A stretch of 24,000 bases of DNA from an uncultured Pseudomonadota bacterium (lineage in GTDB: Bacteria > Pseudomonadota > Gammaproteobacteria > Coxiellales > Coxiellaceae), in the NCBI GenBank assembly GCA_963795715.1, contig CAWCIY010000002.1:1156131-1180130 (forward strand). Direction: 5' to 3'. The position numbers were made by a program, and so were the translations under genes. Within the stretch, counting starts at the first letter, position 1; every line of letters starts with the position of its first letter. This document shows positions 549 to 16,339 of the stretch, piece after piece. The notes beneath the pieces are model-generated. The model made no database searches. It was not told the DNA's origin and was given only the letters and a program-made list of their open reading frames with translations.

Positions 549-3500
549 TGCGCTCGTTTTTTTCATCCATCATTTCTGCCTTTACCATGTTGGCATTGGG
601 CGCAATTTGGCTGTTGCCCCAGTATTTTCATTGGAATACCGGTTCGGTTTTCATAACTTTACTAATTCAAATTTTGAGCACACTGGTTATCACGTTATTG
701 TGTGGCTTATTTCTTTTTAAGAAAAGTAACCGTGCTAAACCTGCGCCAGCAGCAGCCAACCCAACTTCTGATAAACCTAAAAAATATAAAAGATTTTGGA
801 ATTATCTAAAAAAACAAAGTAGCCACTTGTATTTTTATACTAAAAATAAATTGCAACCTGACGCTAGAAAAAAGAATCAACTGTTAACGCATTTGCCTTG
901 GTATTTAGTGATAGGTAATCGTCAAAGTGGCAAATCTACTTTAATTGCGCAGTCGGATTTAAGCCTTTTGCCTACAGATTATTTACAAAGCCTCTCCAAC
1001 GAACTGAACTATCCTCACACCTGGCATTTGACGAAAGAAGCCGTGCTAATGGAATTGGGATATGAATACAACACCCTCATTCCGGAATCATTTTGGAATA
1101 ATTTTATTAAATTCAGTCGACGCTACCGTAGAAAAACCTATTTTAATGGGATCATTTTTACCATTGATCTATCTGAACTGATGTCTGCGCACACCTATAA
1201 CAAAGAATCAACTCAATTAGCTAACGTTAAAACCATTTTTCATCATCTAAGCCACATTTTAAAAACACCCGTACCCGTTTATTTTGTATTAACCAAAAGC
1301 GACCAAATTGCAGGCTTTCAAGAGTTTTTTGCTGATCTGAGCTTGGAGGAAAGGCAACAAATTTTAGGCATCATATTTTCTAAAACCGCGATCAATACTA
1401 CCCAATTCCTGGATTCCTTCCAAAAAGAATATGATGCCTTACTAGCGCGTTTGAACCATCGATTATTTAAGCGCCTAGACGGCGAGCGAGATTTAAATAA
1501 AAGAGCTGTACTCAGTTTTTTCCCGCATCAGCTTCAAATTATCAAAAAGATTTTAGGAGATTTCATCATCCAGGATAAACGCACACAACTTCAGGGTGTT
1601 TTTTTTACCAGCGGGTTACAAGAAGGTGCTAACTTAAATATGGCGATGTCTCTTTTAGCCGCTAAGTATCATCTGGATGAACAAGAGAAGATAGAACTCG
1701 CCTCTCAGAAAAAATCATTCTTTATCAAATCACTTTTTGCAGAAGTCATTTTGCCTGAAAACAATTGGGTATTTCAAACTGCTGATTGGCGCAGACGAGA
1801 TTTGGCCATGTACCGCGTAACACTGATTACCTCCGCAGCCACGTTGGTAATAGGAATCGTCCTACTGTCCCTCTCTTTTACCTCCAACTCACGAAAGATC
1901 TCTAGCATTTCGGAGTCAACCCCATTTTACAGTCAAGCGATACATGAATTTGCTCTTGGACAAAGAGGACTCTATGATCTAGCGCCTGCGTTAATCGAAC
2001 TCAATAAAATTCAAGATTTATATCACTGGAAAAATCGTTCATGGCTCACAAATTTAGAATTATATCAACCGTGGAGCATTCACCATCAGCTAAAGAGTAT
2101 CTGGCAACAAAGTCTCGCTTCTATTTTCATGCCAAGAGTGGCGTCTCGATTAGAAAATATGTTACAAGACAATCAGTTGAGCCTAGAAATAGTTTATCAA
2201 GCTTTAAAAGGTTATTTTGTTTTCAGTCCCCAAACTATTGTTGACCCCCATTGGTTAAAAGCTCCTATCAGCTACGATCTCAGCACTCACTTAAAAGATC
2301 AGACTCATGATCAAATGTTAATTAACAATTATTTAAATGAAGCCATTAACCTACCTATTCCATCGTTTATTTTAAATAAGCAGCTTGTCGATCAAGCCCG
2401 GATCCGTTTAAAAGAAGTACCCCCGGTACAATTTTCTTATTACGAGATAAAACAGGAAGCGGAAAATTCCAGCAATCAATTTAATCTAGAAGAATTATTA
2501 GGTAAAAATTTCTTTAATGTATTTGCATACAGTGATAATAGCCTTAAAAAATTCCCAAATTTCTACACACTGAAAGGATACCAAACTCTTAGAGGTCAAC
2601 ATAGTCAGGATTTTATTAAACAAACGGCACAAACCTATAAAATCCTGGGAATTAATCCAACGGTCAACACTGATAACTTAAGTGCAGAAATGACCCCGGC
2701 GCTATGGGAAATTTATGGTTCAGACTACATTGAACATTGGCAAAAATATTTGGATAATCTCCATGTTGTTAATTTTTCCAATCTCAATGAAGCTATCCAA
2801 AGTATCAATGCAATATTAGATGTTAATAGTCCTATAATGAAAATTTTGGCGGTGATTAAAGACAATACTGAATCTGTGAATACCGATCATTTACAAGTCG
2901 CACAGCAATTCACTCCTTTGAACTCATTGACGCCCAATGGCATTTTCCATAAAGATTCTTCTGCTCCTTATGACGAAATTACTAAAAACCTGCAAGCATT
3001 ACGTGATTATTTAATCGGTATGAATAATTCTCCCAACATTAATCAAAGTGAATTCCAAGAAGCGGTTGGAATTATGAGTAATAAGCTGTCCACCAATCCA
3101 ATTCTCGTCTTGCGCCATCAAGCAGAACAATTACCCGCACCCGTGCGAGGTTGGTTAACACAAATAGCAGATAATAGCTTGGCTTTGCTATTAAAAGGTG
3201 CGCATCAAACCATCAATACCGCGTGGCAGTCCAATGTTTTTTCTTTTTATAAATCCAATATTCAGGGTCGCTTCCCCTTTTCTGCTGATAAATCTAAAGC
3301 CATTGATTTAGAAAATTTCAGCAATTTTTTTGGAGGTAAAGGAATTTTTAATCAATTTTTTCAAAATTATTTAGCACCTTTTATTGATACCAGCCACGGA
3401 GTGTGGCGTGCAACTCAAATCGATAATATTTCACTGCAATTCACAGAAGATGTTTTGAAACAAATTCATCGAGTTTCCTTAATTAGCAACATGTTTTTTC

Positions 3501-3907
3501 AAAACGGCGACAACAAACCCTTTATGCAGTTTCACATTCAGCCTTTATTTTTAGACTCCGAATCTAGCAGTGTGTACGTACAATTGGCCAATCAAACACT
3601 CACCTACAGGCATGGACCGCAACAAACCATCAGTTGGAACTGGCCGGGAAATGAAGGCAGCCAACAGGTGAGCATTTCATTCAGCGATTTCCAAGGTCAA
3701 AATTTCAGCCAAAGCCTAGATGGACCCTGGGCCTGGTTTGAAATGCTCAATAAAACCGCTCTTTCTACTGGCAATGGCTATGGCCGTTACGTATGGTCAT
3801 TTAATCAACACAACCATAAAGCAAGTTTTAATTTGACTGCACAAAATAATTTGCCGCTGTTTGATTTAAAAACGTTGCGACAATTTAATTTGCCTAATGA
3901 TATTTAA
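548..3907 (+). CDS. icmF: IcmF/TssM-family membrane ATPase (1119 aa)
   Basis: Long ORF with N-terminal TM helices, a Walker A motif (GNRQSGKST) and a later TM segment (VTLITSAATLVIGIVLLSL), followed by a ~650-aa C-terminal region. It is translationally coupled to the DotU-like gene. The pair is the conserved DotU+IcmF module of T4BSS/T6SS. Confidence 0.85.
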   Translation: MRSFFSSIISAFTMLALGAIWLLPQYFHWNTGSVFITLLIQILSTLVITLLCGLFLFKKSNRAKPAPAAANPTSDKPKKYKRFWNYLKKQSSHLYFYTKNKLQPDARKKNQLLTHLPWYLVIGNRQSGKSTLIAQSDLSLLPTDYLQSLSNELNYPHTWHLTKEAVLMELGYEYNTLIPESFWNNFIKFSRRYRRKTYFNGIIFTIDLSELMSAHTYNKESTQLANVKTIFHHLSHILKTPVPVYFVLTKSDQIAGFQEFFADLSLEERQQILGIIFSKTAINTTQFLDSFQKEYDALLARLNHRLFKRLDGERDLNKRAVLSFFPHQLQIIKKILGDFIIQDKRTQLQGVFFTSGLQEGANLNMAMSLLAAKYHLDEQEKIELASQKKSFFIKSLFAEVILPENNWVFQTADWRRRDLAMYRVTLITSAATLVIGIVLLSLSFTSNSRKISSISESTPFYSQAIHEFALGQRGLYDLAPALIELNKIQDLYHWKNRSWLTNLELYQPWSIHHQLKSIWQQSLASIFMPRVASRLENMLQDNQLSLEIVYQALKGYFVFSPQTIVDPHWLKAPISYDLSTHLKDQTHDQMLINNYLNEAINLPIPSFILNKQLVDQARIRLKEVPPVQFSYYEIKQEAENSSNQFNLEELLGKNFFNVFAYSDNSLKKFPNFYTLKGYQTLRGQHSQDFIKQTAQTYKILGINPTVNTDNLSAEMTPALWEIYGSDYIEHWQKYLDNLHVVNFSNLNEAIQSINAILDVNSPIMKILAVIKDNTESVNTDHLQVAQQFTPLNSLTPNGIFHKDSSAPYDEITKNLQALRDYLIGMNNSPNINQSEFQEAVGIMSNKLSTNPILVLRHQAEQLPAPVRGWLTQIADNSLALLLKGAHQTINTAWQSNVFSFYKSNIQGRFPFSADKSKAIDLENFSNFFGGKGIFNQFFQNYLAPFIDTSHGVWRATQIDNISLQFTEDVLKQIHRVSLISNMFFQNGDNKPFMQFHIQPLFLDSESSSVYVQLANQTLTYRHGPQQTISWNWPGNEGSQQVSISFSDFQGQNFSQSLDGPWAWFEMLNKTALSTGNGYGRYVWSFNQHNHKASFNLTAQNNLPLFDLKTLRQFNLPNDI

Positions 3908-3912
3908 GGAGG

Positions 3913-3942
3913 CTGAATGCATAATCGTACGAATGCATTCAG
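3913..3942. repeat. Perfect 10-bp inverted repeat (CTGAATGCAT / ATGCATTCAG) with a 10-nt loop, directly after the icmF stop
   Basis: Read directly from the sequence. No T-run follows, so it is not a canonical intrinsic terminator. AAGGAGG (3906-3912) and an ATG at 3917 open a 10-codon mini-ORF inside the hairpin. Confidence 0.6.
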
Positions 3943-3944
3943 AT

Positions 3945-4076
3945 GGTAAAGACTTACAAATTTTTGCCCGCGGCATTCGTGTTGCTAAATATGCTGATGG
4001 CTCATTATTGGTTTCTGATGATTTTGCTGGAAAAGTCTATCGAATCAGTTATCTTCAACCTCAAACTATTCATTAA
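3945..4076 (+). pseudogene. C-terminal remnant (~44 codons) of a PQQ-dependent sugar/sorbosone dehydrogenase-like gene
   Basis: Frame 3 reads GKDLQIFARGIRVAKYADGSLLVSDDFAGKVYRISYLQPQTIH*. This matches the characteristic ...DGSLLVSDD..G.IYRI.Y C-terminus of soluble glucose/sorbosone dehydrogenases. The rest of the gene is absent, because icmF ends 38 nt upstream. Confidence 0.45.
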
Positions 4077-4096
4077 AGCCTATTTAAATTTTGAAC

Positions 4097-4125
4097 TTGA
4101 TTTTTTTGTATTTTTTATTTAAAAT
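4097..4125 (+). promoter_or_regulatory. Candidate sigma70 promoter for the POT transporter gene
   Basis: TTGATT (4097-4102), 17-nt spacer, TAAAAT (4120-4125), about 27 nt upstream of the ATG at 4153. The region is AT-rich, so chance matches are common. Confidence 0.3.
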
Positions 4126-4152
4126 CAGAGTTTATATTTTTGGTGAGTAAAT

Positions 4153-5658
4153 ATGACTAAATCTTCGCTTTACCAGCAGCCTAAAGGCTTATATCTCTTG
4201 TGCGGCACCGAGCTTTGGGAAAGATTCGGCTTTTATACCGTACAAGCCATTTTAATACTCTTTCTAACCAAAGCCCTGGGTTACAGTGACCATAAAGCCA
4301 ACCTGGTGTATGCGGTGTACAGTTCCTTGCTCTATATTACCCCTATCCTTGGAGGCTGGGTGGCAGATCGTTTCCAGGGCTTCCAACGCGCGATTTTAGT
4401 GGGAGGATTATTATCGGTTTTAGGTTATCTCATCACTGCCGTTCCCAATGAAAAAATATTCTTTATAGGGCTCAGTATTTTGATCTGCGCCAATGGCCTA
4501 TTTAAACCCAATGTATCGGCCATCGTTGGGGATCTCTATCAAACCGGCGATGCCCGCAGAGATGGCGGATTTACCTTATTTTATATGGGTATCAACATCG
4601 GCGCTCTGGTTCCTCCACTCATTGCAGGAGCGGCGGTCGGATTATATGGTTGGCATATCGGCTTTTTGCTGGCCGCAGCAGGTATGATTATTGGCTTCTT
4701 CACATTTATGATAGGCCGCAGAAGGTTGACTTTAGCCGGCAAAATTCCGGTGACCAGCCCACTGACGCAATCTAGAAGCAAAAAATGGCAGTTTGAAGCG
4801 TTATTTTACTCTGGCTTCGCGTTATTAGCCGTACTCTGTTACTTTGCCTTTAATTTCCCTCAACTCATTACTTACCTAGTAGAATGCGCTGCTCTAGCGG
4901 TCGCTTTGGTGGTGGTTTTTTACATGTTCAAGGAACCTCCTACTGAACGTAAAAAGATACTCGCCAGTTTAGTTCTCACGGCCATTTCCGTCGGTTTTTG
5001 GGCTTTATACAACCAAACGTTTACTTCCCTAACTCTTTTCGCCGACCGAAACATGGAACATCATTTCCTAAAATGGTCAGTAGACGCTTCTACCATGCAA
5101 TTCTTTAACCCACTGTTCATTATTTTACTAAGTCCCTTAATCAGCGCAATGTGGGTGAGCTTGAGCAGACGGAGGCTCAATCCATCTATACCGTCAAAGT
5201 TTACTTTAGGAGTTTTATTTTTAGGATTGGGATTTTTAATCTTACCTTTAGGCATCTACTTCTTCCCAAACCAAGGCTCGGTAAATGCTTGGTGGTTAGT
5301 CATTAGCTATTTTCTACAAACCGTGGGTGAATTATTGCTATCTCCGGTAGGACTTTCTATGATTACCCAGCTAGTCCCTAAAAAATTAGTCGGCATGATG
5401 ATGGGGGTCTGGTTCTTCGCCCAAGCCGCTTCATTTGCCCTCGGCGGTAGCTTAGCCAATCTAGCTGCGATTCCAGATAACTTATCTAAAATAGATTCGT
5501 TAGCAGTGTATAACCATGCCTTTTTCTTGTTTGGCATTTTATCTATGGGTTTAGTTATTTGCAGTGCCATACTAGTGCCTTTTTTAAGAAAACTCATTCA
5601 ATCCCCGGAAGCTTCTGTAAAAAAAGAGAGCTCCAACCCGGAGCCAGTGGTGATGTGA
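4153..5658 (+). CDS. Proton-dependent oligopeptide transporter (POT/PTR2 family, di/tripeptide permease)
   Basis: 501 aa and polytopic. It has the POT signature ELWERFGFY (ExxERFxYY) followed by GGWVADRF. Confidence 0.9.
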   Translation: MTKSSLYQQPKGLYLLCGTELWERFGFYTVQAILILFLTKALGYSDHKANLVYAVYSSLLYITPILGGWVADRFQGFQRAILVGGLLSVLGYLITAVPNEKIFFIGLSILICANGLFKPNVSAIVGDLYQTGDARRDGGFTLFYMGINIGALVPPLIAGAAVGLYGWHIGFLLAAAGMIIGFFTFMIGRRRLTLAGKIPVTSPLTQSRSKKWQFEALFYSGFALLAVLCYFAFNFPQLITYLVECAALAVALVVVFYMFKEPPTERKKILASLVLTAISVGFWALYNQTFTSLTLFADRNMEHHFLKWSVDASTMQFFNPLFIILLSPLISAMWVSLSRRRLNPSIPSKFTLGVLFLGLGFLILPLGIYFFPNQGSVNAWWLVISYFLQTVGELLLSPVGLSMITQLVPKKLVGMMMGVWFFAQAASFALGGSLANLAAIPDNLSKIDSLAVYNHAFFLFGILSMGLVICSAILVPFLRKLIQSPEASVKKESSNPEPVVM

Positions 5659-5740
5659 TCATTGCCATTGGCCCGAAATCAGTGTATCTGCTAAATTTAA
5701 GGGAGAATCAAACAAGGCTTATAATCTAAAGGAGAAAATT

Positions 5741-6163
5741 ATGCAAATAAAAGAAATTATGACTAAAAAACCTGAATCCTTACCCCCCACCACTATATTA
5801 AAAGAAGCCGCTGAAAAGATGTTAAAAAAAGATTTTGGCTTTCTTCCTGTATCCGAAAACGGAAAACTATTGGGTGTGGTAACTGACCGAGATATCACTA
5901 TTCGCGCTGTCGCTAAAGGATTAGAAGCGGATTCTACCAGTTTGGAAGATGTGATGACTAAGAAAGTGGTGATCTGTCACGAAAACGATGACGTGCACAA
6001 CGCCGCTGATTTAATGAAAGAAAAGCAAATCCGCCGTTTGGTAGTGCTTGATAAAAACGAACACATCTGTGGCGTAGTGACATTGGGTGATATTGCCATT
6101 AAGTGCGATGATATAGATTTGAATGACGAAGTACTTCGTGCGCTTTCCGAAAAAACCCATTAA
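5741..6163 (+). CDS. CBS-domain pair protein
   Basis: 140 aa with two CBS-type repeats (IMTKKPESL...GVVTDRDI and VMTKKVVICHEND...GVVTLGDI). A strong RBS (AAAGGAGA) precedes the start. Confidence 0.85.
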   Translation: MQIKEIMTKKPESLPPTTILKEAAEKMLKKDFGFLPVSENGKLLGVVTDRDITIRAVAKGLEADSTSLEDVMTKKVVICHENDDVHNAADLMKEKQIRRLVVLDKNEHICGVVTLGDIAIKCDDIDLNDEVLRALSEKTH

Positions 6164-6165
6164 TA

Positions 6166-6243
6166 AATCCCTTCCCTAACTCCCTTTTCAAAGGGAGAAG
6201 AGCTCTTCCCCCTTTGTCAAAGGGGGATTGAGGGGGATTTTTT
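6166..6243. terminator. Compound palindrome / probable bidirectional terminator between convergent genes
   Basis: Two local hairpins are present: CTCCCTTT..AAAGGGAG at 6180-6197, and TCCCCCTTT-GTC-AAAGGGGGA at 6207-6227. Both sit inside a longer imperfect palindrome centred on AGAGCTCT (6199-6206). A T6 run lies at 6238-6243. Confidence 0.55.
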
Positions 6244-6259
6244 ATTCCGTACACATTCC

Positions 6260-6793
6260 CTATGTCAACAATTCCGCTAAATCATCCGCATGCTCTTCTT
6301 CATCTTCTAAAATTTTTTCCAAAATTCTGCGCGTAGTGGGATCAGCAGCTCCAAACCATTCAATCATTTTGCGATAAGTCATAATTGCAATTCTTTCAGC
6401 TATCAAATCTTCTTTAATTAGAGTAACCAAATCCCTGCCGTTGCCATATTCTGTAGCGGTTCTAGCCGCAATGCTGGAGGGATTAAAATCCGGATTTCCG
6501 CCCAATTGATTGATGCGCTCAGCGATCATGAACATATGCCTTTCTTCATTGTCACCATGTTCTTCAAATTCCGCCGCCACCTGGGGCCTATCAATCCCCT
6601 TAGCAATCACTTGATGATGCCGGTATCTTAATACACACATGATTTCGGTTGCTAAAGCACAATTGAGAATGGCGCAAGCTTGATTAATATCCAGCGGGTA
6701 GTCCTTAGTCACTGCTCCTTCTTCGATAGATTGCCTTGCCTGTTCTCTGATTTGATCCAAATCAAAAGGCAAATTGCTATTAGAATAATCCAT
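6260..6793 (-). CDS. Ferritin-like (bacterioferritin/Dps-like) di-iron protein
   Basis: The start is taken at M83 of the tracked ORF (MDYSNSN...), which is preceded by GGAGG. Ferritin-like helices carry E..H ligand motifs (FEEHGDNEERH, LEDEEEHADDL). The longer ORF would overlap the divergent qor-like start. Confidence 0.8.
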   Translation of the reverse strand: MDYSNSNLPFDLDQIREQARQSIEEGAVTKDYPLDINQACAILNCALATEIMCVLRYRHHQVIAKGIDRPQVAAEFEEHGDNEERHMFMIAERINQLGGNPDFNPSSIAARTATEYGNGRDLVTLIKEDLIAERIAIMTYRKMIEWFGAADPTTRRILEKILEDEEEHADDLAELLT

Positions 6794-6967
6794 AATTCCT
6801 CCGATACTACTTAAACCCAGATACGTTAAAAGATAGTAAGCTGGATAAAGTTTGTCAAAAATCAGTAATCCCCGCTGCCATCCTAATGAGAAGAGGTCGA
6901 ACGGGAATTGCTGGTCAAAAATCAAAATAAGTGATAACTTTCTAATTCTATGAATACACCAGAGACC

Positions 6968-7948
6968 ATGCGTTACATCGAAGTGCAGCCCGACCACACC
7001 TTGAAGATAGCGATCGGTCCGACTCCCAAACCGAAGCAAGATGAAATTTTAATACGCGTTTTTGCTGCAGGCATTAATCGCGCAGATATTCTACAACGTA
7101 AAGGTTTGTATCCACCGCCGGCAGATGCAAGTCCCATTCTCGGTTTGGAAATTTCCGGAGAAATAATACAAATCGGAGCACAAGTACAAAGCCATCAGGT
7201 AGGGGACAAAGTGTGTGGTTTAACCAATGGCGGAGGTTATGCCGAATATGCTATCTTGCCAGCTACACAAGCGCTCCCCTGGCCTGAAAATTACGACGCT
7301 GTTCACGCAGCCGCTATACCTGAAAGTTACTTAACTGTTTGGGCCAATGTCTTTATGAAGGGAAGATTCGCCAAAGGCGAAACATTTTTAGTGCATGGCG
7401 GCAGCAGCGGAATTGGTGTGACCGCCATTCAATTGGTGAAAGAATTTGGTGGCAAAGTTTACGCCACTGCTGGCTCTGCAGAAAAATGCCAGGCTTGCCG
7501 AGATTTAGGAGCAACCGAATGCATCAACTATCGGCAAGAAGATTTTGAAGAACATATTCTTCGACTCACTCAAAATAAAGGTGTAGACATAATTCTAGAT
7601 ATGATCGGCGCACTTTATTTCGAACATAATCTCAATTGTCTTAATTTCGATGGCAGATTAATAGAGATCGCTACTCAAAAAGGAGCCATTGTGGAACGAT
7701 TGGATTTACAAAAAATTATGAAAAAACGATTATCTATTACCGGCTCTCATTTACGTCCGCGCAGCGCACAAGAAAAAGCGGCAATCGCTGCTTCCTTATT
7801 CCATGATGTTTGGCCCATATTGTCGGCAGGCCGCTGTAAGCCGGTTGTTTACAAAACTTTTTCTTTTAGTGAAGTCAACGAGGCGCATTGTTTAATGGAA
7901 AGCAGCCAACATATTGGCAAAATTGTCATAACTGTGGAGATACTATGA
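6968..7948 (+). CDS. qor: NAD(P)H:quinone oxidoreductase (MDR superfamily, PIG3/Qor-like)
   Basis: MRYIEV...EILIRVFAAGINRADILQRKGLYPPP...GLEISGEI and the nucleotide-binding motif VHGGSSGIGV. An alternative ATG lies at 6950. The stop overlaps the next start (ATGA at 7945-7948). Confidence 0.85.
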   Translation: MRYIEVQPDHTLKIAIGPTPKPKQDEILIRVFAAGINRADILQRKGLYPPPADASPILGLEISGEIIQIGAQVQSHQVGDKVCGLTNGGGYAEYAILPATQALPWPENYDAVHAAAIPESYLTVWANVFMKGRFAKGETFLVHGGSSGIGVTAIQLVKEFGGKVYATAGSAEKCQACRDLGATECINYRQEDFEEHILRLTQNKGVDIILDMIGALYFEHNLNCLNFDGRLIEIATQKGAIVERLDLQKIMKKRLSITGSHLRPRSAQEKAAIAASLFHDVWPILSAGRCKPVVYKTFSFSEVNEAHCLMESSQHIGKIVITVEIL

Positions 7949-8937
7949 AAGCACAAATTATTACTCAATTCGGCGAACCTTCGGTATTTAAGTTAATGGA
8001 AATTCCAGTTCCCGATTTAAAACCAGGACATGTGCTGATTAAAGTCGCAGCAACCAGCGTTAACCAAATCGATTGCAAAATCAGAAGCGGCTTAGTCGGT
8101 GCAATTGCACCTGCTTTTCCAGCAGTTTTACACGGAGACGTATCCGGCGTCATCTCAGCCGTTGCACCTGATGTAAGCTCTTTCCACGTTGGAGATGAGG
8201 TCTACGGCTGTGCCGGAGGTTTAAGAGATTCGGGTGGCGCGCTTGCAGAATGGATGGTAGCCGATGCTCGCTTAATAGCAAAAAAGCCCAAAACCTTATC
8301 CATGTTACAAGCAGCCGCTTTACCTTTAGTTAGCATTACTGCTTGGGAGGCGTTATTTACCAAATCCAATTTACAAAAAAACCAATCTATTTTAATCCAT
8401 GGGGGTGTTGGCGGAGTGGGCCATATCGCAGTCCAACTGGCCCGATGGGCAGGCGCCAAAATTTCCACCACTGTTTTAACTCAAAATGATTTTGATTTAG
8501 CAAAATCTTTAGGGGCCGATGAAGTGATTAATGCCCGGGAGGAAAAAGTAGCCGATTATTTAGCGAGATTGACCCGCAATAAAGGTTTTGATATTGTTTT
8601 TGACACCGTTGGCGGAGCCAATTTAGATAATTCTTTTCAGGCAGCGGCGAAAAACGGCAAGGTAGTCACCACAGCAGCCCGCTCAACTCACGATCTGAGT
8701 CCTTTGCACAGTAAAGCCTTGAGCCTGCATTGTGTTTTTATGTTATTACCTCTCTTAGATAATGCCGGTCGAGAACAACATGGCGAAATTTTACAGCAGG
8801 TCGCCCAAATAGTAGATCAAGGACAATTAAAACCATTCATAGACAGCCATTCCTTTAATCTAGAAAACACTCCAGCAGCCCATACTCTGTTGGAATCTGG
8901 AAAAGCTCATGGAAAAGTAGTGATTTCGATTAGTTAA
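7945..8937 (+). CDS. Zinc-type alcohol dehydrogenase/quinone oxidoreductase family protein (MDR paralog)
   Basis: The start is taken at MKAQIITQFGEP (ATG 7945), which is coupled to the upstream gene. It has the motif IHGGVGGVGH and a C-terminal GKAHGKVVI. Confidence 0.85.
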   Translation: MKAQIITQFGEPSVFKLMEIPVPDLKPGHVLIKVAATSVNQIDCKIRSGLVGAIAPAFPAVLHGDVSGVISAVAPDVSSFHVGDEVYGCAGGLRDSGGALAEWMVADARLIAKKPKTLSMLQAAALPLVSITAWEALFTKSNLQKNQSILIHGGVGGVGHIAVQLARWAGAKISTTVLTQNDFDLAKSLGADEVINAREEKVADYLARLTRNKGFDIVFDTVGGANLDNSFQAAAKNGKVVTTAARSTHDLSPLHSKALSLHCVFMLLPLLDNAGREQHGEILQQVAQIVDQGQLKPFIDSHSFNLENTPAAHTLLESGKAHGKVVISIS

Positions 8938-9876: not shown

Positions 9877-10439
9877 GATCAACTCTCCTTGAGTTTAGTT
9901 GGTTGTGGCCGTGCGACGTGAGGTTGTTTTATTGATTGTTTCTACCTAAGAGATCAAGGTGAGAAACCGGTTGTTTCGCCAACCGTTTCCTACCCGAACA
10001 TGCGATCCCGGCGACGGGATGGTGTGAAGCTCCGGGGACAACGAAGCCGTGGGATTAAACAAGCTACCCGATAAGATTTTTCGTGAGGAAATCTAAAATC
10101 CCTAATATCCATGGGATGAGGCGCCAGGAAGAATGGCATGGTTAATGTAATGTAAATCTTCGTAACTATCGTAAGCAACAAACAGCTAAAGGATATTGGT
10201 AAGCTGTAGCCAAAAGGCAAGAAGTCAGGATAAGAGCTGACCACTCTCTTATCGCGAATGTTGAACTTCCGGTGGATAGAAGAAACCTAAACCATTTCGT
10301 CAATAAAATAGAACATGTCAAATCTGTTGATCTCCTTTGAGCCAGGGAAAGCAAACCGTAAGGTGCGCCGAAAGGTCAGCAGAATTAGGAGGATGAACGA
10401 AGCGAATGCCACCCGGTAATAGGATGGATAGGGATTGAG

Positions 10440-10469
10440 TTTTTTTTTTGAAAAAAAAAAAAAAAAAAA
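10440..10469. repeat. Homopolymer pair T10-G-A19 inside the intron ribozyme
   Basis: Read directly: 10 T (10440-10449), G (10450), 19 A (10451-10469). It is immediately followed by a GCGC-GAAA-GCGC tetraloop hairpin. Confidence 0.95.
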
Positions 10470-10540
10470 TAATATCATCCCGCGCGAAAGCGCTGCCCAA
10501 GTTCATCTGGTTCTTATAACGAGAAGGATTCGAAAACCGA

Positions 10541-10957
10541 ATGAAAGCAGGTACGCAGGATAGGAGTAACCCTGGAGTTGCTGACGCGGCCTCACAACGT
10601 GATATACCTTGGCATCATATTCATTGGCGTCAAGCGCATAAAACGGTGAATCGGCTTCAATCCCGCATCGTTTCGGCATTGCAGGAAGGCAATCATCGTA
10701 AAGTCCGCGCTTTACAGATCCTTCTGACAAAATCGTTATCCGCAGCTGCAATGGCTGTGAGACAGGTGACCGAAAATACAGGAAAAAGAACGCCCGGTAT
10801 TGATCAGGAAGTTTGGAAAACCAACAACCAAAAAGCCGAAGCCATCAGTCGGATTCGCGCCAGTCGATATCGAGCTAAACCCCTTCGTCGAATCTATATC
10901 CCTAAACCCGGCAAGGACGAAAAACGTCCCTTGAGTATCCCGACGGTGACTTCATAA
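10541..10957 (+). pseudogene. Group II intron reverse transcriptase, N-terminal fragment
   Basis: ...VNRLQSRIV...LQILLTKSLSAAAMAVRQVTENTGKRTPGID...YIPKPGKDEKRPLSIPT, followed by VTS* where the insertion begins. Confidence 0.85.
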
Positions 10958-13048
10958 TACACCTCCTTCAATTTTATTTTGGGATTTTGATCGCGCAATA
11001 GCAATTTTGGTTGAATTTTCAACTATCCTCCTAAGTTCAAGCTCTTTTTCTGGTCCAATAAATAACCAGAACTTCAAGCCGCTGCGTCGCTTGCTAATCA
11101 TACCACGTTCAATCCAGTCATAAATCACATACTGGCTCACGTTAAATTTTTCGGCGGCTTCCTTGACGGATATCTCTCCTTCTTTTTGCCGTCGTGGCGC
11201 AGGGATTTTATGCTTAAATCGAATCCATTGAACACCCTCTATCGTAAAAGAATTTCCCTTATTGGTTTTCAATCCCATTTGATTAAATTGCCCAACAATT
11301 TGCTGATCAGTCATCGTCAATGCTAATTGCCGGACTTGTTCAATCAACTCAGGAGAATGACGCCATTTTTCATGTGATTTTTGAGGTAATTCTACTTCTA
11401 TGCTTTCCGTGGCTCCACCTTGCCAGCGAATATGCAATGTGCTTTTTCTAGCGTTAATTAATTTCTCTACCGTAATATCTTTAATAAGCAGTCGCAAAAT
11501 ACGTTTACGATCTTTTGAACTGGTAGAATCAGCATTCCAGAGAACACTAAAATCTTTGGCTAATGCCACAATATTTTCCTTGTGTTGTTTTATTTGAATG
11601 AGCGCATTTTTTTCTTGATATTCAGCATATTTCTTATGAATTTCTTCCAGCGCTATTAACGATTCATTCCAACGTTTTTCAAGGGTTGCGGCGACTAGTC
11701 GATTAGACGGATCGACTTCCTCATAACGTCGTTGGGCGATTTGCACTTCATAATCTGCTCTGTCGATCTTCATTTTCCACTGTTTTTCTAGAGACTTCGC
11801 CTCTTTGTTCCAATTCTTCAAATGCTTTAATTGCAATATCAATTTGATTCGAATTCATGACGGTTAATATTTTTTTTGAAATAGTTTGATCTAATGGAGT
11901 AGCTAATACAGAAAGACAGGATTTAAGATGAACACCATTACGTTTTTGCCAATTACACTGATAAGCAGGGCGAATCCCATTATGATCCGTATAACGCACA
12001 GTCAGCCGATAACCACAACGACCACAGATTAATAATCCTTGTAATAAAGCATGTCCTTCTCTTGCCGCTGTAGAGGTTAGGTTTTCTAATCCGTTCGTTT
12101 TATTTTTTTCAAGGCTCTTTTGATTATTTAAATAGTCTTCCCAAGAAATATAGCCTTCATGATGATCTTTTATCATGACATGCCATTTATCCATCGGCAA
12201 ACACTGAGTGGTTATTTGTAATTGACCGGTACTCGATAATTTTTTATTAAAGCGATGACGTCCATATACATAAACACCCGCATAATTAGGGTTTTTTATG
12301 ACACCTAATACTCGAGAATCCGTCAATGTTCCCCATATTAATTTTCCTTTCCAAGCTCCACCGTAGGCACGTTTAGGAAATAAAATTTCATTCTCATCTA
12401 AAGTATTTAACTACTGCATAAGCAGCTGCCTCTCTCTTTAAATACTTTAAATAACAACTGAATAACGTGGCGCACTTGTTCATCACAATCAATATAATGT
12501 GACCTTCTTCGTTATAGCATAATCCTATTGGCAAAGGTGATCGCAACTCACCTTTTTTAGCTTTATTCATTTTCCCTCCCTGGAGGCGCGCGCGAATAAA
12601 ATGCAGCTCGGCTTGCGACATGGTTCCCTTGATTCCCAACAACAATTGGTCGTTGAAATCGGCAGGATTGTAACAACCATCTTCGTCGATAATCAATGTA
12701 TTCGTTAATCGCACATAATTCCAATAAACGATGCCAATCGGTACAAGACCGTGATAGTCGAGAAGCTTCCAAAGCAAAGACTGCTCCGACTTTCCCCATC
12801 GAAACATCCGCTACGAGCAATTTGAAATCTTCGCGGTGATTCGCTTGACTGCCCGACAATCCTAAATCCCCATCCAATATTTTGATCGCTTGTTGAGGCC
12901 ATCCCATCTGCTGTGCCTTGTCTCGAAGAGCATATTGGCGCTGAGTACTTTCCTGATTGAAGCGTACTTGTGCCATCGTCGATTGCCGAAGGTAAATATA
13001 CGCTGGTTTGGCCGTGTGTTGGGGTTGAATTTTGGTTTCTATCATCAT
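10952..13048 (-). pseudogene. Large serine recombinase (~699 codons), multiply frameshifted
   Basis: The N-terminal resolvase domain reads AYIYLRQSTMAQV...ALEASRLSRSCTDWHRLLELC. The gene then continues in other frames: TLIIDEDGCYNP..GIKGTMSQAELHFIRARLQGG; LDCDEQVRHVIQLLF; AAYAVVKYF; ENEILFPKR..NPNYAGVYVYGR..LLICGRCGYRL (zinc ribbon); coiled coil YEEVDPSNRLVAATLEKRWNE; and a C-terminal HTH-like tail. Frame changes lie near 12700-12715, 12485-12495, ~12424, ~12396 and 11795-11815. Confidence 0.85.
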
Positions 13049-13191
13049 GATTCAGTTTCTCCCTTTGAGTAGATATCATTTTATTTTTGTCCAAATAGTC
13101 TTGTAGCATATTCGCTACAATGATGGCGGCATGAGCCGTATTCAATGATGTCAGGGAGGATGAATCCATTTCAGATACTCTAATTTCCTTT

Positions 13192-13531
13192 TTAAAAATT
13201 GACTTTTCGTAACAATAGCTCGCGATTGATATCGCTGATTTCTCCTATAATTGCTTGGGCTTTTCGATAATTTTCTAACGCCTCTTCGACGATTACCTTG
13301 TTTTCCATAGACACGTAGATTAAAACAGTCTCTTGCATCCGGTATACTGACAGAAAGGTAATAAGTCGGCCCATGCTTGCTCCCTTCGTTGCAATGGCAA
13401 TTGGTTTTCCCACACTGTTTGTACCTTTCGATGAGTGACCCTCGCATCATATTTTCTTCGATGCTTTGTAAGTTCTTTGTATAAGCGTTCCTTCTCTTTT
13501 GACGTAGATGAGTGGAAGTAAAATTTTTCAT
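13192..13531 (-). pseudogene. DUF6788-like small protein, one frameshift
   Basis: MRGSLIERYKQCGKTNCHCNEGSKHGPTYYLSVS in one frame continues as ...ETVLIYVSMENKVIVEEALENYRKAQAIIGEISDINRELL in another, with the shift near 13350-13365. The RGSL..CGK.NC.C....HGPYYYL...YV pattern is the family signature as I recall it. Confidence 0.6.
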
Positions 13532-13537
13532 AAATAC

Positions 13538-13561
13538 CTGGACAGTTGTTAAACTGTCCAG
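13538..13561. repeat. Perfect 10-bp stem / 4-nt loop palindrome between the DUF5372-like and DUF6788-like genes
   Basis: CTGGACAGTT-GTTA-AACTGTCCAG, lying 6 nt upstream of the DUF6788-like ATG on the minus strand. Confidence 0.6.
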
Positions 13562-13585
13562 ATTCTACTATGAAATTTTCATAAT

Positions 13586-13945
13586 TCAATTTCTATTTTT
13601 TTGTTGGTTAACTGGTTTTAAAGTAGAGATCAAATCAGCCAATTGTTGAAGATGTGTAAAAGACAAAATAGGCGGGTGTTCAGATAACGATTGCAAAGGA
13701 TTGATATCAGCCTGATCAGTCCATTCTCGAGGAATACCAAAGGTACCTTGAAGGGATCCTTGCAAACTTAAAATGTCTTCATTGTACCTCTTTAAAGAAA
13801 GAATCTTAAATTTCTGACCTCTTAAAGGATGAAAAGGATGAGTAATGGTTGCCCATCCCGAAGATTGACTGTACTGATGTGCAGTTAGCTTTGACCGTGC
13901 CGTGCATGGTGGACAGAGCGAAACAAGCCTTACATCTATTAGCAT
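13586..13945 (-). CDS. DUF5372-like (Y4bD/Y4pK-type) small protein; the annotated ATG lies in flanking antisense RT sequence
   Basis: Conserved core ITHPFHPLRGQKFKIL...GIPREWTDQADINP...LSFTHLQQLADLI. The first ~12-14 codons (MLIDVRLVSLCPP...) are read from the antisense strand of the RT gene, outside the cassette. No ATG, GTG or TTG lies in frame inside the cassette upstream of ITHPF. Confidence 0.6.
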   Translation of the reverse strand: MLIDVRLVSLCPPCTARSKLTAHQYSQSSGWATITHPFHPLRGQKFKILSLKRYNEDILSLQGSLQGTFGIPREWTDQADINPLQSLSEHPPILSFTHLQQLADLISTLKPVNQQKNRN

Positions 13946-15204
13946 TAGATCCGATTGCGGAATACTATGCGGATTTAAACTCCTATGGTTTTCGCAAGAA
14001 AAGATCCACAGCCGATGCTATTGAGGCTTGTCGAATCTGTCTTTTCAGGAAAAACTCTGCAAAATGGGTCCTGGAAGGTGACATCAAAGGCTGTTTTGAC
14101 AACATCTCGCACACGTGGTTAATGAAATGGATTCCGATGAATAAACGAGTACTCGCACAATGGTTAAAGGCGGGATATATCGATCAGAAAACTTTCTATG
14201 AAACCGATCTCGGGACTCCCCAGGGGGGTATAGCGTCACCGGTATTGGCTAACCTAACGCTGGATGGATTAGAAGCTCAAATTAAGCTTCAATTCAAAAA
14301 ACAGAAGGTCAATGTCATCCGCTACGCCGACGATTTTATCATCACCGGAGAATCAAAAGAACTCCTGGAAAATAAAATCAAACCCGCTGTGGAAAAATTT
14401 TTGCAGATCAGAGGACTCTCTCTATCTCAGAAAAAGACCCATATCACCCACATGGAAGAAGGATTCGATTTTCTTGGCTTCAATCTTCGCTGGATGAAAG
14501 ACCAGCTCGTCATCAAACCAGCGAAAGCGAAGGTGAAAGCAGTGCTCGCCAAAATCAGGCTAACATTGCGCAAAGGTTTACACCGACAACCAGGAGATAT
14601 CATTAGTCAACTCAATCCTATTATTAGAGGATGGGGTAACTATTATCGCCACTGTTGCTGTTCTCGAACATTCTGCTACCTCGATCATCAAATCTGGCAA
14701 GCGCTTTGGCGTTGGGCGATGAGAAGACATCCCGGCAAAGGCAAAAGATGGGTCAAAGATAAATACTTTAAGAAAACACACAGAACAGCCTGGGATTTCT
14801 GCGGAAAATCGTTCGAAGGGCTTCCCATTTATCTCACTATGGCCCGGTCTGTTCATCACAAAAAGCATATCAAAATCCGTCAGGAAGCCAATCCTTACGA
14901 TCCTCAATATGCCCAGTATTTTGAACAACGCCGCCGGAATACGACTGATATTCCAGATAGAAAACTTCTAAGAAATCTATGGCTTGAACAAAAGGGATTA
15001 TGCCCACTCTGCCAAACGGTAATCACACAACAGTCTGGATGGCATATGCATCACATCATACATCGGAGTCGCCAAGGCAAAAACACTCAAGAAAATCTGG
15101 TCTTGTTGCACCCAATGTGTCATGATCAATGGCATCTACGCGATAGCGAGAGCAAAGCCGGGCTTTCCAGGAAAGTCTTTAAGAGCTTGAGCCGTATGCA
15201 GTGA
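13906..15204 (+). pseudogene. Group II intron reverse transcriptase, C-terminal fragment (RT domains, maturase X, HNH endonuclease)
   Basis: It resumes MVDRAKQALHLLALDPI. It contains SYGFRKKRS, GTPQGGIASPVLANL, the IRYADDFII (YADD) active site, the maturase motif RGWGNYYR, and HNH motifs CPLCQ...HHIIHRSRQG...LHPMCHDQWH. There is no internal stop. Confidence 0.85.
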
Positions 15205-15263
15205 AAGTTGCACGTACGGTTCTTAGGGGACGGGGTCACGGTAACGTGATCTTGTTACCCGAC
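15189..15263 (+). ncRNA. Group II intron domains V and VI
   Basis: Domain V is GAGCCGTATGCAGTGAAAGTTGCACGTACGGTTC (34 nt) with an AGC triad, a 2-nt bulge and a GAAA loop. Domain VI is GGGGACGGGGTCACG-GTAA-CGTGATCTTGTT-A-CCC, with an unpaired A at 15257 six nt before the 3' end (..GAC). Confidence 0.8.
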
Positions 15264-15514: not shown

Positions 15515-16339
15515 ATGGCGCGCTATCTTGATCCGAAAGTGGATGTAGTTTTTAAAAAAATCTTTGGTCAGCACCCTCATTTGTTGAGGAGTTTTCTAAA
15601 CGCTGTACTGCCTTTGCCGGAAGGAACCTGGATAGAGTCATTGGAGTATTTAAGCAGTAAGCAAACCCCAGAAATTCCGGTATTTAAAACCACGGTAGTG
15701 GATGTAAAATGTAAAGACCAGATGGGCAGAATATTCATTGTAGAGATGCAAATTCAATGGACGGATGCATTTAAGCAGCGGTTGTCGTTTGGAGCCAGCA
15801 CTGCTTACGTGCGCCAACTGAAGCATGGAGAGGATTATAATTTATTAAAGCCGGTTTACGGTTTAGGATTGTTAGCCAGTGTCTTTGATAAAGAAACTCC
15901 GCAGTGGTATCACCATTATAAATTAGTGAATATCGGCCAGCCGGAACGAGAGATCAAGCATTTACAGTTAGTATTTATTGAACTGCCGAAATTTAAACCG
16001 GCGTCCTTTCAGGAAAAAAAACTGCAAGCGCTCTGGTTAAGCTTTATGTCCGAATTAAATGATGAGACCCAAACTATTCCTGAAGAATGGTTAAATGAGC
16101 CGGAAATTGCAGAAGCAGTACAACTAAGCCGGCAATCAGCTTATACAAAATCAGAATTGCAAGCGTATGATAAATATTGGGATGCAGTAAGTACAGAAAA
16201 AACTCTAATTTCAGGGGCTTATCATGAAGGTAGGCATGAAGAAAAAGTACTTATTGCTCGAAAACTATTATTGTCTGGTATGAAAAAAGACGAAGTTTTG
16301 GCAATAACCGGTTTATCACTTCAAGATTTAGAAACCTGA
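15515..16339 (+). CDS. Rpn-family recombination-promoting nuclease / PD-(D/E)XK putative transposase
   Basis: N-terminal YLDPKVDVVFKKIFG and the nuclease core VVDVKCKDQMGRIFIVEMQIQ are the typical signature of this family. Confidence 0.8.
   Translation: MARYLDPKVDVVFKKIFGQHPHLLRSFLNAVLPLPEGTWIESLEYLSSKQTPEIPVFKTTVVDVKCKDQMGRIFIVEMQIQWTDAFKQRLSFGASTAYVRQLKHGEDYNLLKPVYGLGLLASVFDKETPQWYHHYKLVNIGQPEREIKHLQLVFIELPKFKPASFQEKKLQALWLSFMSELNDETQTIPEEWLNEPEIAEAVQLSRQSAYTKSELQAYDKYWDAVSTEKTLISGAYHEGRHEEKVLIARKLLLSGMKKDEVLAITGLSLQDLET

Follow-up and report, generated by a model that had tools for sequence, protein, structure and literature searches.

The locus examined here raises a plain question: why does a group II intron carry a serine-recombinase cassette, on the opposite strand, inside one of the most conserved motifs of its own reverse transcriptase (RT) gene? 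The intron lies in a 24,000-nucleotide stretch of contig CAWCIY010000002.1 from an uncultured Coxiellaceae bacterium, here called the window. A first-pass annotation, made from the letters of the window, had proposed that the cassette specifically targets this coding sequence. Comparison with relatives of both the intron and the cassette indicates that the insert is very probably a defective copy of an ~2.9-kb integrative element of the large serine recombinase (LSR) type, whose attachment site would be the DNA that encodes the RT motif R-P-L-G-I-P-T-x-x-D-R. The parts of the intron and of the insertion are as follows.

9911 to 15263, forward strand: host group II intron, delimited by Rfam matches and end-to-end homology to uninterrupted introns
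10541 to 10941, forward strand: N-terminal fragment of the intron-encoded protein (IEP), from RVT_N to RPLSI plus the CC of the Pro codon (Pfam RVT_N, E 6e-31)
10940 to 10941, forward strand: first copy of the crossover dinucleotide CC, where the B arm of the intron meets the end of the element; the CC join restores intact homologues
10942 to 13901, reverse strand: inserted LSR element, 2,960 bp (one CC counted), with 97.7% nucleotide identity to the intact element at locus L001
13900 to 13901, forward strand: crossover dinucleotide CC, copy 2, the same dinucleotide at both element ends
13900 to 15204, forward strand: C-terminal fragment of the IEP, P-CMVDRAKQ.., with RT domain, maturase X and HNH (Pfam RVT_1, GIIM, HNH)
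15187 to 15263, forward strand: intron domains V and VI (Rfam RF00029, 66 bits)

Without the element, the host intron measures 2,393 nt and is structurally complete, as had been claimed from its sequence. It begins at 9911 with GTGCG, which fits the 5' GUGYG of mobile group II introns, and the Rfam group II covariance models suggested as a check match both of its ends: RF02012 (group-II-D1D4-7) at 9967-10124 on the forward strand (93 bits) and RF00029 over domains V and VI, each above its gathering score. The emptied intron aligns over its full length with L090, a copy of the same intron that has no insert (94.3% nucleotide identity), and with an uninterrupted relative (L084, 79%), and homology to these two begins 6 nt before 9911 and stops 2 nt past 15263. 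Its IEP gene is split by ~2.96 kb of opposite-strand serine-recombinase DNA, again as first described, with an RVT_N fragment on one side and a fragment bearing RVT_1, GIIM and HNH on the other. The N-terminal open reading frame (ORF; 10541-10957) continues 16 nt into the element as P-T-V-T-S-stop, and the C-terminal part is carried by a called ORF of 13849-15204. An intact IEP would place RT, maturase X and endonuclease domains in one ORF within domain IV; because this ORF is split, and whole (567 aa) only after in-silico removal of the element, the intron in the window is not autonomously mobile. Just upstream of the IEP start, the intron also holds a T10-G-A19 tract (10440-10469) where the intact L090 copy has T8-GAG-A8, and since the L090 tracts are shorter at the same place, this T-run/A-run hairpin has expanded in the window.

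The exact position of the break differs from the one first assigned. The interruption had been placed between IPT(VT) and (MV)DR, with element limits of 10946/52 to 13905/11; the break falls within the Pro codon, the element runs from 10942 to 13901, and the earlier junctions were 5-10 nt off. Intact homologues have Cys rather than Thr at this point, and the Thr of 'IPT VTS*' comes from the element, whose end reads GACGGTGACTTCATAA, rather than from the intron. The crossover is the CC that begins the Pro codon in ..RPLSI-P-CMVDR... On the side of the element's DUF5372 gene, the cassette shared by the window and L001 stops at ..TTGACCGTG-CC (RT sense), beyond which the flanks diverge, reading GTGCATGGTGGAC in the window and ATCGGGTGATGAT at L001; on the opposite, LSR side, both read ..ATC-CC-GACGGTGACTTCATAA. 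Because the two loci share the element end and diverge in the flanks beyond it, the core must be CC, given a conservative 2-bp exchange. Joining the flanks at CC gives RPLSIPCMVDRAKQ, exactly as read by the intact IEPs P0308 and P0311 (94%) and P0159 (80%), and the alignments of L090 and L084 to the emptied intron are gapless over ..TTGAGTATmCCGTGCATGGTGGA... The in-silico deletion that had been proposed as a check yields a 567-aa ORF with RVT_N, RVT_1, GIIM and HNH, which reads ..KRPLSIPCMVDRAKQ.. and is colinear with the solved T.el4h group II RT (6ME0_C, residues 17-552, E 2e-166), gapless at the junction. The nearest intact IEPs are also exactly 567 aa long and read RPLSIPCMVDRAKQALHLL (P0159 at 80% identity; P0308 and P0311 at 93.8%, ungapped).

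Does the element recognise this codon, or did it land there once? Starting from an alignment of 30 LSR homologues, we drew 80 loci from contigs sampled at one genome per species. They are the top 80 of at least 580 matches, with LSRs 47-67% identical to the query and hosts in more than 12 phyla. Classification of the flanks covers 82 loci, 75 of them informative, distributed as follows.

RT on both flanks: 41 loci
RT on the only available flank: 21 loci
RT on one flank only: 5 loci
No RT on either flank: 8 loci (L036 among them is probably an RT site)
No flank available: 7 loci

RT sequence stands at the target codon in 67 of the 75 informative loci (~90%), which upholds the proposal of specific targeting. 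The trio of DUF5372, DUF6788 and LSR genes is conserved across the surveyed loci. In tblastn searches with the two RT halves, the C-terminal part (from residue 1-4) adjoins DUF5372 and the N-terminal part (to ..IP) adjoins the LSR stop codon, and the rebuilt empty sites translate to a continuous ..RPLGI/PTVxDRxxQ.. in the large majority of loci. Among the long ORFs for the RT C-terminal part, RVT_1 is present in 23 of 23, GIIM in 18 and Intron_maturas2 in one. The host introns, by their Rfam D1-D4 matches, belong to classes 2, 3, 4 and 6, with domain V and all positions as expected, and the window intron to class 7. Because the host RTs are only ~25-30% identical to one another, the loci represent many independent insertions at one codon. 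A search for the same cassette elsewhere, also proposed at the outset, finds the L001 copy at the same codon of an unrelated intron, whose RT (RVT_1, Intron_maturas2 and an AI2M-type HNH) has 24% amino acid identity to the window RT over the aligned stretch. Two further elements within one metagenome-assembled genome (MAG), L033 and L034, are 99.7% identical over the element only and sit in different host RTs.

By their record titles, the hosts include Alpha-, Beta-, Gamma- and Deltaproteobacteria, Acidobacteriota, Nitrospirota, Planctomycetota, Verrucomicrobiota, Lentisphaeria, Gemmatimonadota, Chloroflexota, Cyanobacteria, Bacillota, Myxococcota, Saccharibacteria and Binatia. Wolbachia genomes hold several copies, and relatives of the LSR occur in 458 plasmid records. 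Many contigs of ~2.95 kb start and end at attachment sites, the signature of a multicopy repeat.

The first argument for targeting had been a likeness between two 21-mers at the junctions. The count of 10/21 identities is exact, but a binomial P of ~0.02-0.04 leaves it indecisive, and the comparison was in effect of attL with attR; the occurrence of GGTG at both junctions is not meaningful. The case for specific targeting is strong because of the comparative data, not because of the 10/21 identity, and both alternatives once offered for that likeness, coincidence and a remnant of an earlier intron host, are rejected. The related claim that an arm of the element's own site (attP) resembles its target (attB) fares better when the sites are reconstructed: the attP 3' half-site GACGGTca copies the commonest attB half-site, GACGGTG, which encodes Thr-Val.

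With the element ends joined, the attP consensus on the LSR strand is GAGGTGCATTATGAAnnCACCGTC-Gg-gACGGTCAgnGCgAACTGCAC, of which the LSR-side arm GAGGTGCATTATGAAnnCACCGTC has high information content. The site is an imperfect palindrome of ~44 bp, GTGCATTATGAAnnCACCGTC [GG] GACGGTCAgnGCgAACTGCAC, also written GTGCATTATGAAATCACCGTC-GG-GACGGTCAGCGCGAACTGCAC, whose symmetry, GTGCA..CACCGTC / GG / GACGGT..TGCAC, matches the inverted repeat of ~40-50 bp around the core expected for an LSR. The attB consensus in RT sense, ..CGnCCgCTgGGnATn-CC-gaCngTgnngGAcCGn.., shows a 3-base periodicity of information content and reads as codons ..CGn CCn CTn GGn ATn CC G ACn GTn nnn GAY CG.., making the target a coding motif of ~30 bp. 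The half-site 3' of the core is common to both sites (GACGGT in attP, Thr-Val codons in attB). Nearly all relatives have the same dinucleotide at both junctions, mostly GG/GG or CC/CC and in a few cases GC/GC, GT/GT or AC/AC; identical junction dinucleotides, the lack of target-site duplication and gapless empty-site alleles are what conservative 2-bp exchange leaves behind. Orientation follows the core: among RT-flanked elements, 53 are antiparallel to the RT, with mostly GG on the LSR strand, and 14 are parallel, all but one with CC, while three elements with a palindromic GC core include both orientations. GC and GT variants occupy RTs that have an Ala (GCn) or Thr (ACn) codon, for example RPLGI/ATIRDR and RPLAI/TALEDK.

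The joined form is also found in nature. Metagenome contigs of the Joint Genome Institute (JGI) were scanned for the predicted attP junction ATGARNYCACCGTCGGSACGGTYA, with two matches. One, L086 (2,983 bp), reads in order LSR residues 417-681, GGAGGTGCATCATGAAACCACCGTC-GG-GACGGTCAGCGCGAACTGCAC, DUF5372, DUF6788 and LSR residues 2-425; it is a circular permutation of the element, its ends overlap inside the LSR gene, and it holds no intron sequence. L086 is an assembled circle or a head-to-tail tandem, and either way the predicted attP exists in nature. The other match (L085) is a chance one with no element genes. The junction was also sought in viral_contigs, with no match for either orientation class, and three Logan contigs of ~2.95 kb were rejected as circles: they begin and end at att sites, as collapsed repeats do.

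The element itself is small and encodes, on the minus strand, DUF5372, DUF6788 and an LSR of ~700 aa. Its size in the window fits the family range of 2.69-3.1 kb, and neither the window element, L001 nor the surveyed loci (~2.9 kb) carry phage or conjugation genes. Its parts are listed here.

10942 to 10962, reverse strand: LSR-side terminal arm of attP, minus strand GTGTATTATGAAGTCACCGTC
10942 to 10955, reverse strand: detached 5' piece of the DUF5372 gene (ATG AAG TCA CCG TC..), overlapping the LSR stop as ATGA
10952 to 13048, reverse strand: LSR pseudogene with resolvase catalytic, recombinase and zinc-ribbon domains and a long C-terminal extension with a helix-turn-helix (HTH) (Pfam PF00239, PF07508, PF13408)
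13192 to 13531, reverse strand: DUF6788 pseudogene, frameshifted near 13330 (Pfam PF20586, E 1e-14, first half only)
13586 to 13899, reverse strand: main body of the DUF5372 (Y4bD/Y4pK family) gene (Pfam PF17342)
13879 to 13899, reverse strand: DUF5372-side terminal arm of attP, minus strand CACGGTCAAAGCTAACTGCAC

The recombinase in the window consists of four overlapping ORF fragments. Reassembled by three-frame translation, it is 98% identical to the intact 697-aa protein P0001 of L001, where the DUF5372-DUF6788-LSR cassette is whole. PF00239 is found in the window fragments and in all homologues, followed by PF07508 and then the zinc beta-ribbon PF13408, and the serine motif A-Y-x-Y-L-R-Q-S-T, near-invariant in the 30-sequence alignment, is present in the pseudogene. 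Past the zinc ribbon and a coiled-coil region, the protein continues for a further ~220 aa, which is unusual for LSRs; an HTH of excisionase/MerR type in this extension (P0001 residues 625-657; window ~10980-11160, minus strand) is matched by TIGR01764 (E 5e-4) and HTH_17 (E 1e-4), both below their cut-offs. This HTH might recognise the outer GTGCA motifs or have a part in directionality.

Between the cassettes of the window and L001, at 97.7% nucleotide identity, there are 10 small indels, most of which insert a single base away from homopolymers. Scored against the intact L001, the window copy has five frameshifts in the LSR gene and one in DUF6788, and it is dead, a decayed, non-autonomous element. 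Sequencing error was rejected as the source of the frameshifts, as the indels are not in homopolymers and the neighbouring genes of the window are intact. Most of the inactivating lesions, near 13330, 12710, 12426, 12399 and 11795, are insertions of one base (four G, one A) that do not lie in repeats, an odd spectrum. The called DUF6788 ORF (13151-13531) covers half of the Pfam model, where the intact L001 version has 111 aa. The DUF5372-side arm is identical to that of L001, and, as both arms match those of the intact copy, the window element could be mobilised in trans. Two LSR fragments of the same cluster, P0125 and P0131 (77 and 273 aa), are encoded on the contig of the window; because their lengths differ from those of the window fragments, this genome probably holds at least one further decayed copy.

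For the two small proteins, no structural or family match was obtained. An AlphaFold2 model of DUF6788 from an 11-sequence alignment (predicted local distance difference test score, pLDDT, 72) gave nothing below E 0.14 in a Foldseek search against PDB, and a DUF5372 model was not used (pLDDT 48). NCBIfam holds no model for either family, and a protein search with the DUF5372 and DUF6788 concatenate returned 15 matches, too few for deep alignments.

One of these genes appears to be divided between the two ends of the element. In the window, no start codon for the DUF5372 body lies within the element, and the called ORF (13586-13945) starts at a fortuitous ATG of the intron flank, at 13945. At the other end, the LSR-side arm carries a Shine-Dalgarno-like GGAGGTG (10959-10965, minus strand) followed by an ATG at 10955-10953. 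This ATG is conserved in 61 of 62 elements with GGAGGTG or AGAGGTG before it, and it is kept, together with its ribosome-binding site (RBS), even in subfamilies whose LSR stop codon lies 20-60 nt upstream; in the subfamily of the window copy, stop codon and ATG overlap as ATGA. Read across the rebuilt attP, the conserved ATG shares the frame of DUF5372 in 62/62 elements, 59 of which give ORFs of 103-121 aa starting M-K-S-P-S-G-R-S.., and the continuous ORF is present in L086. Because the integrated gene lacks the conserved start, gene callers assign to integrated DUF5372 homologues unrelated N-termini that run into the flanks. Full-length DUF5372 is thus likely to be made only from the excised circle or a head-to-tail tandem. 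Against this stand three points. The 62 in-frame cases are homologous, with indel-free ends, hence not independent events; an in-frame GTG or TTG, usually the TTG for the Leu of 'LGWAEI', precedes the conserved HPFHP motif in 48 of 62 elements, so that a shorter DUF5372 could come from the integrated copy; and part of the conservation around the ATG could serve LSR binding. In ~44 of 62 elements, L013 and L008 among them, the Leu codon of 'LGWAEI' (DUF5372 codon 13) is TTG, GC-rich genomes included, and this may mark an alternative internal start in the integrated state.

A model of movement that accommodates these features is as follows. The element would excise precisely as a circle, the presumed form of transposition, and its joined ends would form attP. 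LSR dimers would synapse attP with attB, break all four strands at the central dinucleotide (positions 1 and 2 of the Pro codon) and exchange them conservatively. With no target duplication, excision would restore the RT gene exactly. The central dinucleotide alone sets the orientation, GG on the LSR strand giving elements antiparallel to the RT and CC parallel ones, and GC, GT and AC variants occupy RTs or other genes that bear the corresponding dinucleotide. Because the motif is common to all intron classes, with codon positions 1 and 2 conserved and position 3 free, one lineage can hop between unrelated introns. Insertion truncates the IEP after RT motif 0/1 and so disables the RT and maturase of that intron copy. 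The RBS, ATG and first five codons of DUF5372 lie beside the LSR stop, and the whole gene would be rebuilt by a circle or tandem. DUF6788 or DUF5372 may serve as directionality or accessory factors.

Precise excision of this kind also invites the reading that the insert is a domesticated switch, retained so that programmed removal turns the RT gene on, as with XisF and the fdxN element or SpoIVCA and skin. An LSR would indeed restore the ORF exactly and leave no duplication, and XisF is the best NCBIfam match of the LSR, although far below its cut-off (81 vs 375 bits). The elements are, however, multicopy, patchily distributed over more than 12 phyla, present in different introns of one genome and often decayed; they lack a conserved host regulatory context, and the gene they interrupt is itself selfish. 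We regard a switch as very improbable.

Still less probable is that the three genes are cargo, gained once by an ancestral intron and spread by retrohoming and vertical descent of the composite. Group II introns can carry additional DNA in domain IV, and the chromosome of Burkholderia sp. OK233 has a 5,681-bp block of intron plus element at two sites (L014 and L016), the copies being 99.9% identical. Single acquisition nevertheless fails to account for near-identical elements in unrelated introns (window and L001; L033 and L034), for uninterrupted alleles of the same intron at 94% identity, for both orientations, each with its matching core dinucleotide, and for an attP junction without intron sequence in L086; moreover, the LSRs are 47-67% alike where the host RTs are ~25%. 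Composite retrohoming may occur in addition to LSR-mediated movement. The OK233 block, at locus positions 3113-8793 with different left flanks, fits either composite retrohoming or two insertions into identical intron copies, and is compatible with the suggestion that the element hitch-hikes on multi-copy introns.

The chance landing of a generic LSR element, whether the remnant of a prophage or of an integrative conjugative element (ICE), or a multi-targeting LSR transposon, with a fortuitous likeness at the junctions, has the P of the 10/21 identity and a minority of relatives at non-RT sites to recommend it, and is close to negligible in view of the same codon and dinucleotide in 67 of 75 informative loci across RTs ~25-30% identical and five Rfam intron classes, the differing flanks that exclude copies of one ancestral insertion, the ~2.9-kb element free of phage and conjugation genes, and the lack, by Pfam, of the DUF4368 typical of multi-targeting LSRs.

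The preferred reading, an LSR element that targets the RT motif, has its own weak points. Its support is comparative throughout. The 80 loci were chosen by LSR similarity, so the ~90% describes this clade and not all relatives, and seven or eight of the loci are at non-RT sites. More distant LSRs (41% identity, Sinorhizobium pSymA) accompany a DUF5372 gene not flanked by RT; because these relatives are not in RT genes, RT targeting belongs to one clade of a wider family. L086 may be a tandem or a mixed-copy assembly, its overlapping ends differing at a few bases. CC variants are scattered among GG lineages in a neighbour-joining (NJ) tree of the LSRs drawn without support values, which suggests that the core dinucleotide has switched repeatedly.

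The non-RT sites are varied. L037, with an AC core, lies in a non-RT ORF reading LVLVGL/TELRRRL; L050 lies inside a 678-aa ORF whose sequence looks ParB-like by eye; L038, L039 and L041 are three copies in one MAG within a repeated palindromic sequence of ~200 bp (CAGCAGGTTT-GG-AAACCTGCG); and L003 and L030 are likewise at non-RT sites. The LSRs of such elements nest within RT-targeting clades in the NJ tree, and the insertions look like retargeting or off-target events.

A second, more distant LSR family, 33-40% identical and ~730 aa long, occurs in the same RT genes ~60 codons downstream, at D-x-x-x-F-F-D-x-V-x-H (L005 ~1384-3981; L048 1461-4209; L053 ~1250-3945; L064 ~1240-3926; L040 to 3944; L067 7760-10218). 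As deduced from L053, crossover takes place at a TT within the second Phe codon (AGCTTC-TT-CGAC). The sequence ..GCATTATG../..CAGTATGAAG.. is again present at the LSR-side end of this family, and a 149-aa upstream ORF has a DUF5372-like PADWTD motif. Some RTs hold two different LSR elements at once. A wider synthesis, which we advance tentatively and with slightly less than even confidence, joins the ~2.9-kb elements and this sister family at the F-F-D motif as dedicated hyperparasites of group II introns, which would read DNA with tolerance at wobble positions, use a circle-only DUF5372 as a sensor that steers them to integration, and spread inside introns retrohomed in trans.

Beyond the intron, 250 nt from its 3' end, lies a gene annotated as a 'transposase' of the PD-(D/E)XK nuclease family (15515-16339, forward strand; PF12784, E 2e-41), one cluster member of which is named TIGR01784 family. 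In Wolbachia cid islands, a group II intron is likewise paired with a PDDEXK2 gene (PMC13439711).

On the RT-targeting reading, the most conserved stretch of a retroelement polymerase gene has become the attachment site of a DNA-recombinase element in hosts from Wolbachia to Acidobacteria and Bacillota. Such elements would inactivate intron copies reversibly and may shape intron load; many RTs annotated as 'fragmented RT', and many of the ~3-kb repeat contigs that assemblies contain, may also be due to them. The switch of orientation by a single core dinucleotide, with retargeting to Ala and Thr codon variants, offers a natural illustration of the polarity rules of LSRs, and a gene completed only on circularisation would simply couple expression to the excised state. 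In practical terms, the family supplies hundreds of natural LSR/attP/attB triples for integrase engineering, with a compact attP of ~44 bp and an attB tolerant at every third base, as well as a clear rule for annotating DUF5372-DUF6788-LSR loci as one mobile element. Were the hyperparasite synthesis true, it would add a further layer, so far undescribed, of elements parasitising elements, one that also holds back the proliferation of introns; a single lineage could invade every intron class across bacterial phyla, and assembly of DUF5372 in the circle would be a molecular sensor of being out of the chromosome.

How does the element compare with known systems? Its chemistry is ordinary LSR recombination. 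What appears to be new is a wobble-tolerant coding-motif target in another mobile element, a minimal three-gene architecture and an apparent split gene. The literature searched described no LSR element in group II RT genes and did not mention DUF5372, DUF6788 or y4bD, which is not proof of novelty. The same gene families do recur as Y4bD/Y4pK and recombinase sets on rhizobial and Burkholderia plasmids; on P. phymatum pBPHY02 they are annotated as 'Y4bD/Y4pK family protein', 'DUF6788 family protein' and 'recombinase family protein', and RT fragments flank the trio. The public records treat them as separate genes and mark neither a mobile element nor a target.

The resolvase, recombinase and zinc-ribbon domains are shared with Bxb1, phiC31, TnpX (Tn4451), TndX (Tn5397) and Ccr (SCCmec). 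Also shared with LSR integrases and transposons are a 2-bp crossover that is the same at both junctions, the lack of target duplication, an attP that is palindromic and ~40-50 bp long, a polarity that depends on the central dinucleotide and a presumed circular intermediate. Unlike those systems, the element here is minimal, three genes in 2.9 kb that include no cargo for phage functions, conjugation or resistance; it targets the coding motif of another mobile element rather than a host gene; its LSR has the ~220-aa C-terminal extension with an excisionase-like HTH (sub-cut-off); and its partners are DUF5372 and DUF6788, with no DUF4368 and one gene apparently split across attP. Multi-targeting LSRs of the TnpX/TndX clade carry DUF4368 and have relaxed targets, AT-rich or with a TT core (Durrant et al. 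2022, PMC10083194). Membership of that class was rejected: Pfam scans and precomputed domains hold no DUF4368, and the target is a specific one of ~30 bp with a CC core.

XisF of the Anabaena fdxN element and SpoIVCA of the Bacillus skin element are alike as LSR inserts that split an ORF, restorable by conservative excision. Those elements are single-copy, developmentally controlled and in host genes, whereas the family here is multicopy, crosses phyla and lies in a retroelement gene; an XisF equivalog was rejected, NF041201 scoring 80.8 against a cut-off of 375 and the partners being DUF5372 and DUF6788 rather than XisH and XisI. A classical insertion sequence (IS), which would have a DDE, DEDD or HUH transposase or a small serine transposase of IS607 type and, in most families, duplicate its target site, was likewise rejected, given an LSR of ~700 aa with an N-terminal catalytic domain and no duplication; the likeness is in size and absence of cargo only. 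In the use of a conserved, multicopy and dispensable landing pad, the closest parallels are group IIC-attC introns, twintrons, R2 in rDNA and insertion sequences that target repetitive extragenic palindromes (REP). Unlike those homing elements, the invader here is a DNA-recombinase element and the pad is the coding sequence of a retroelement catalytic domain, for which wobble tolerance is needed.

Expression that depends on joined ends has precedents in the junction promoters of IS911, IS30 and IS110 and in the read-through of the Tn916 joint. The element described here resembles these in having an expression unit that appears to be assembled only when its ends join. It differs from them in that the predicted product of joining is not just a promoter but a coding sequence, the RBS, ATG and five codons at one end being united with the rest of DUF5372 at the other.

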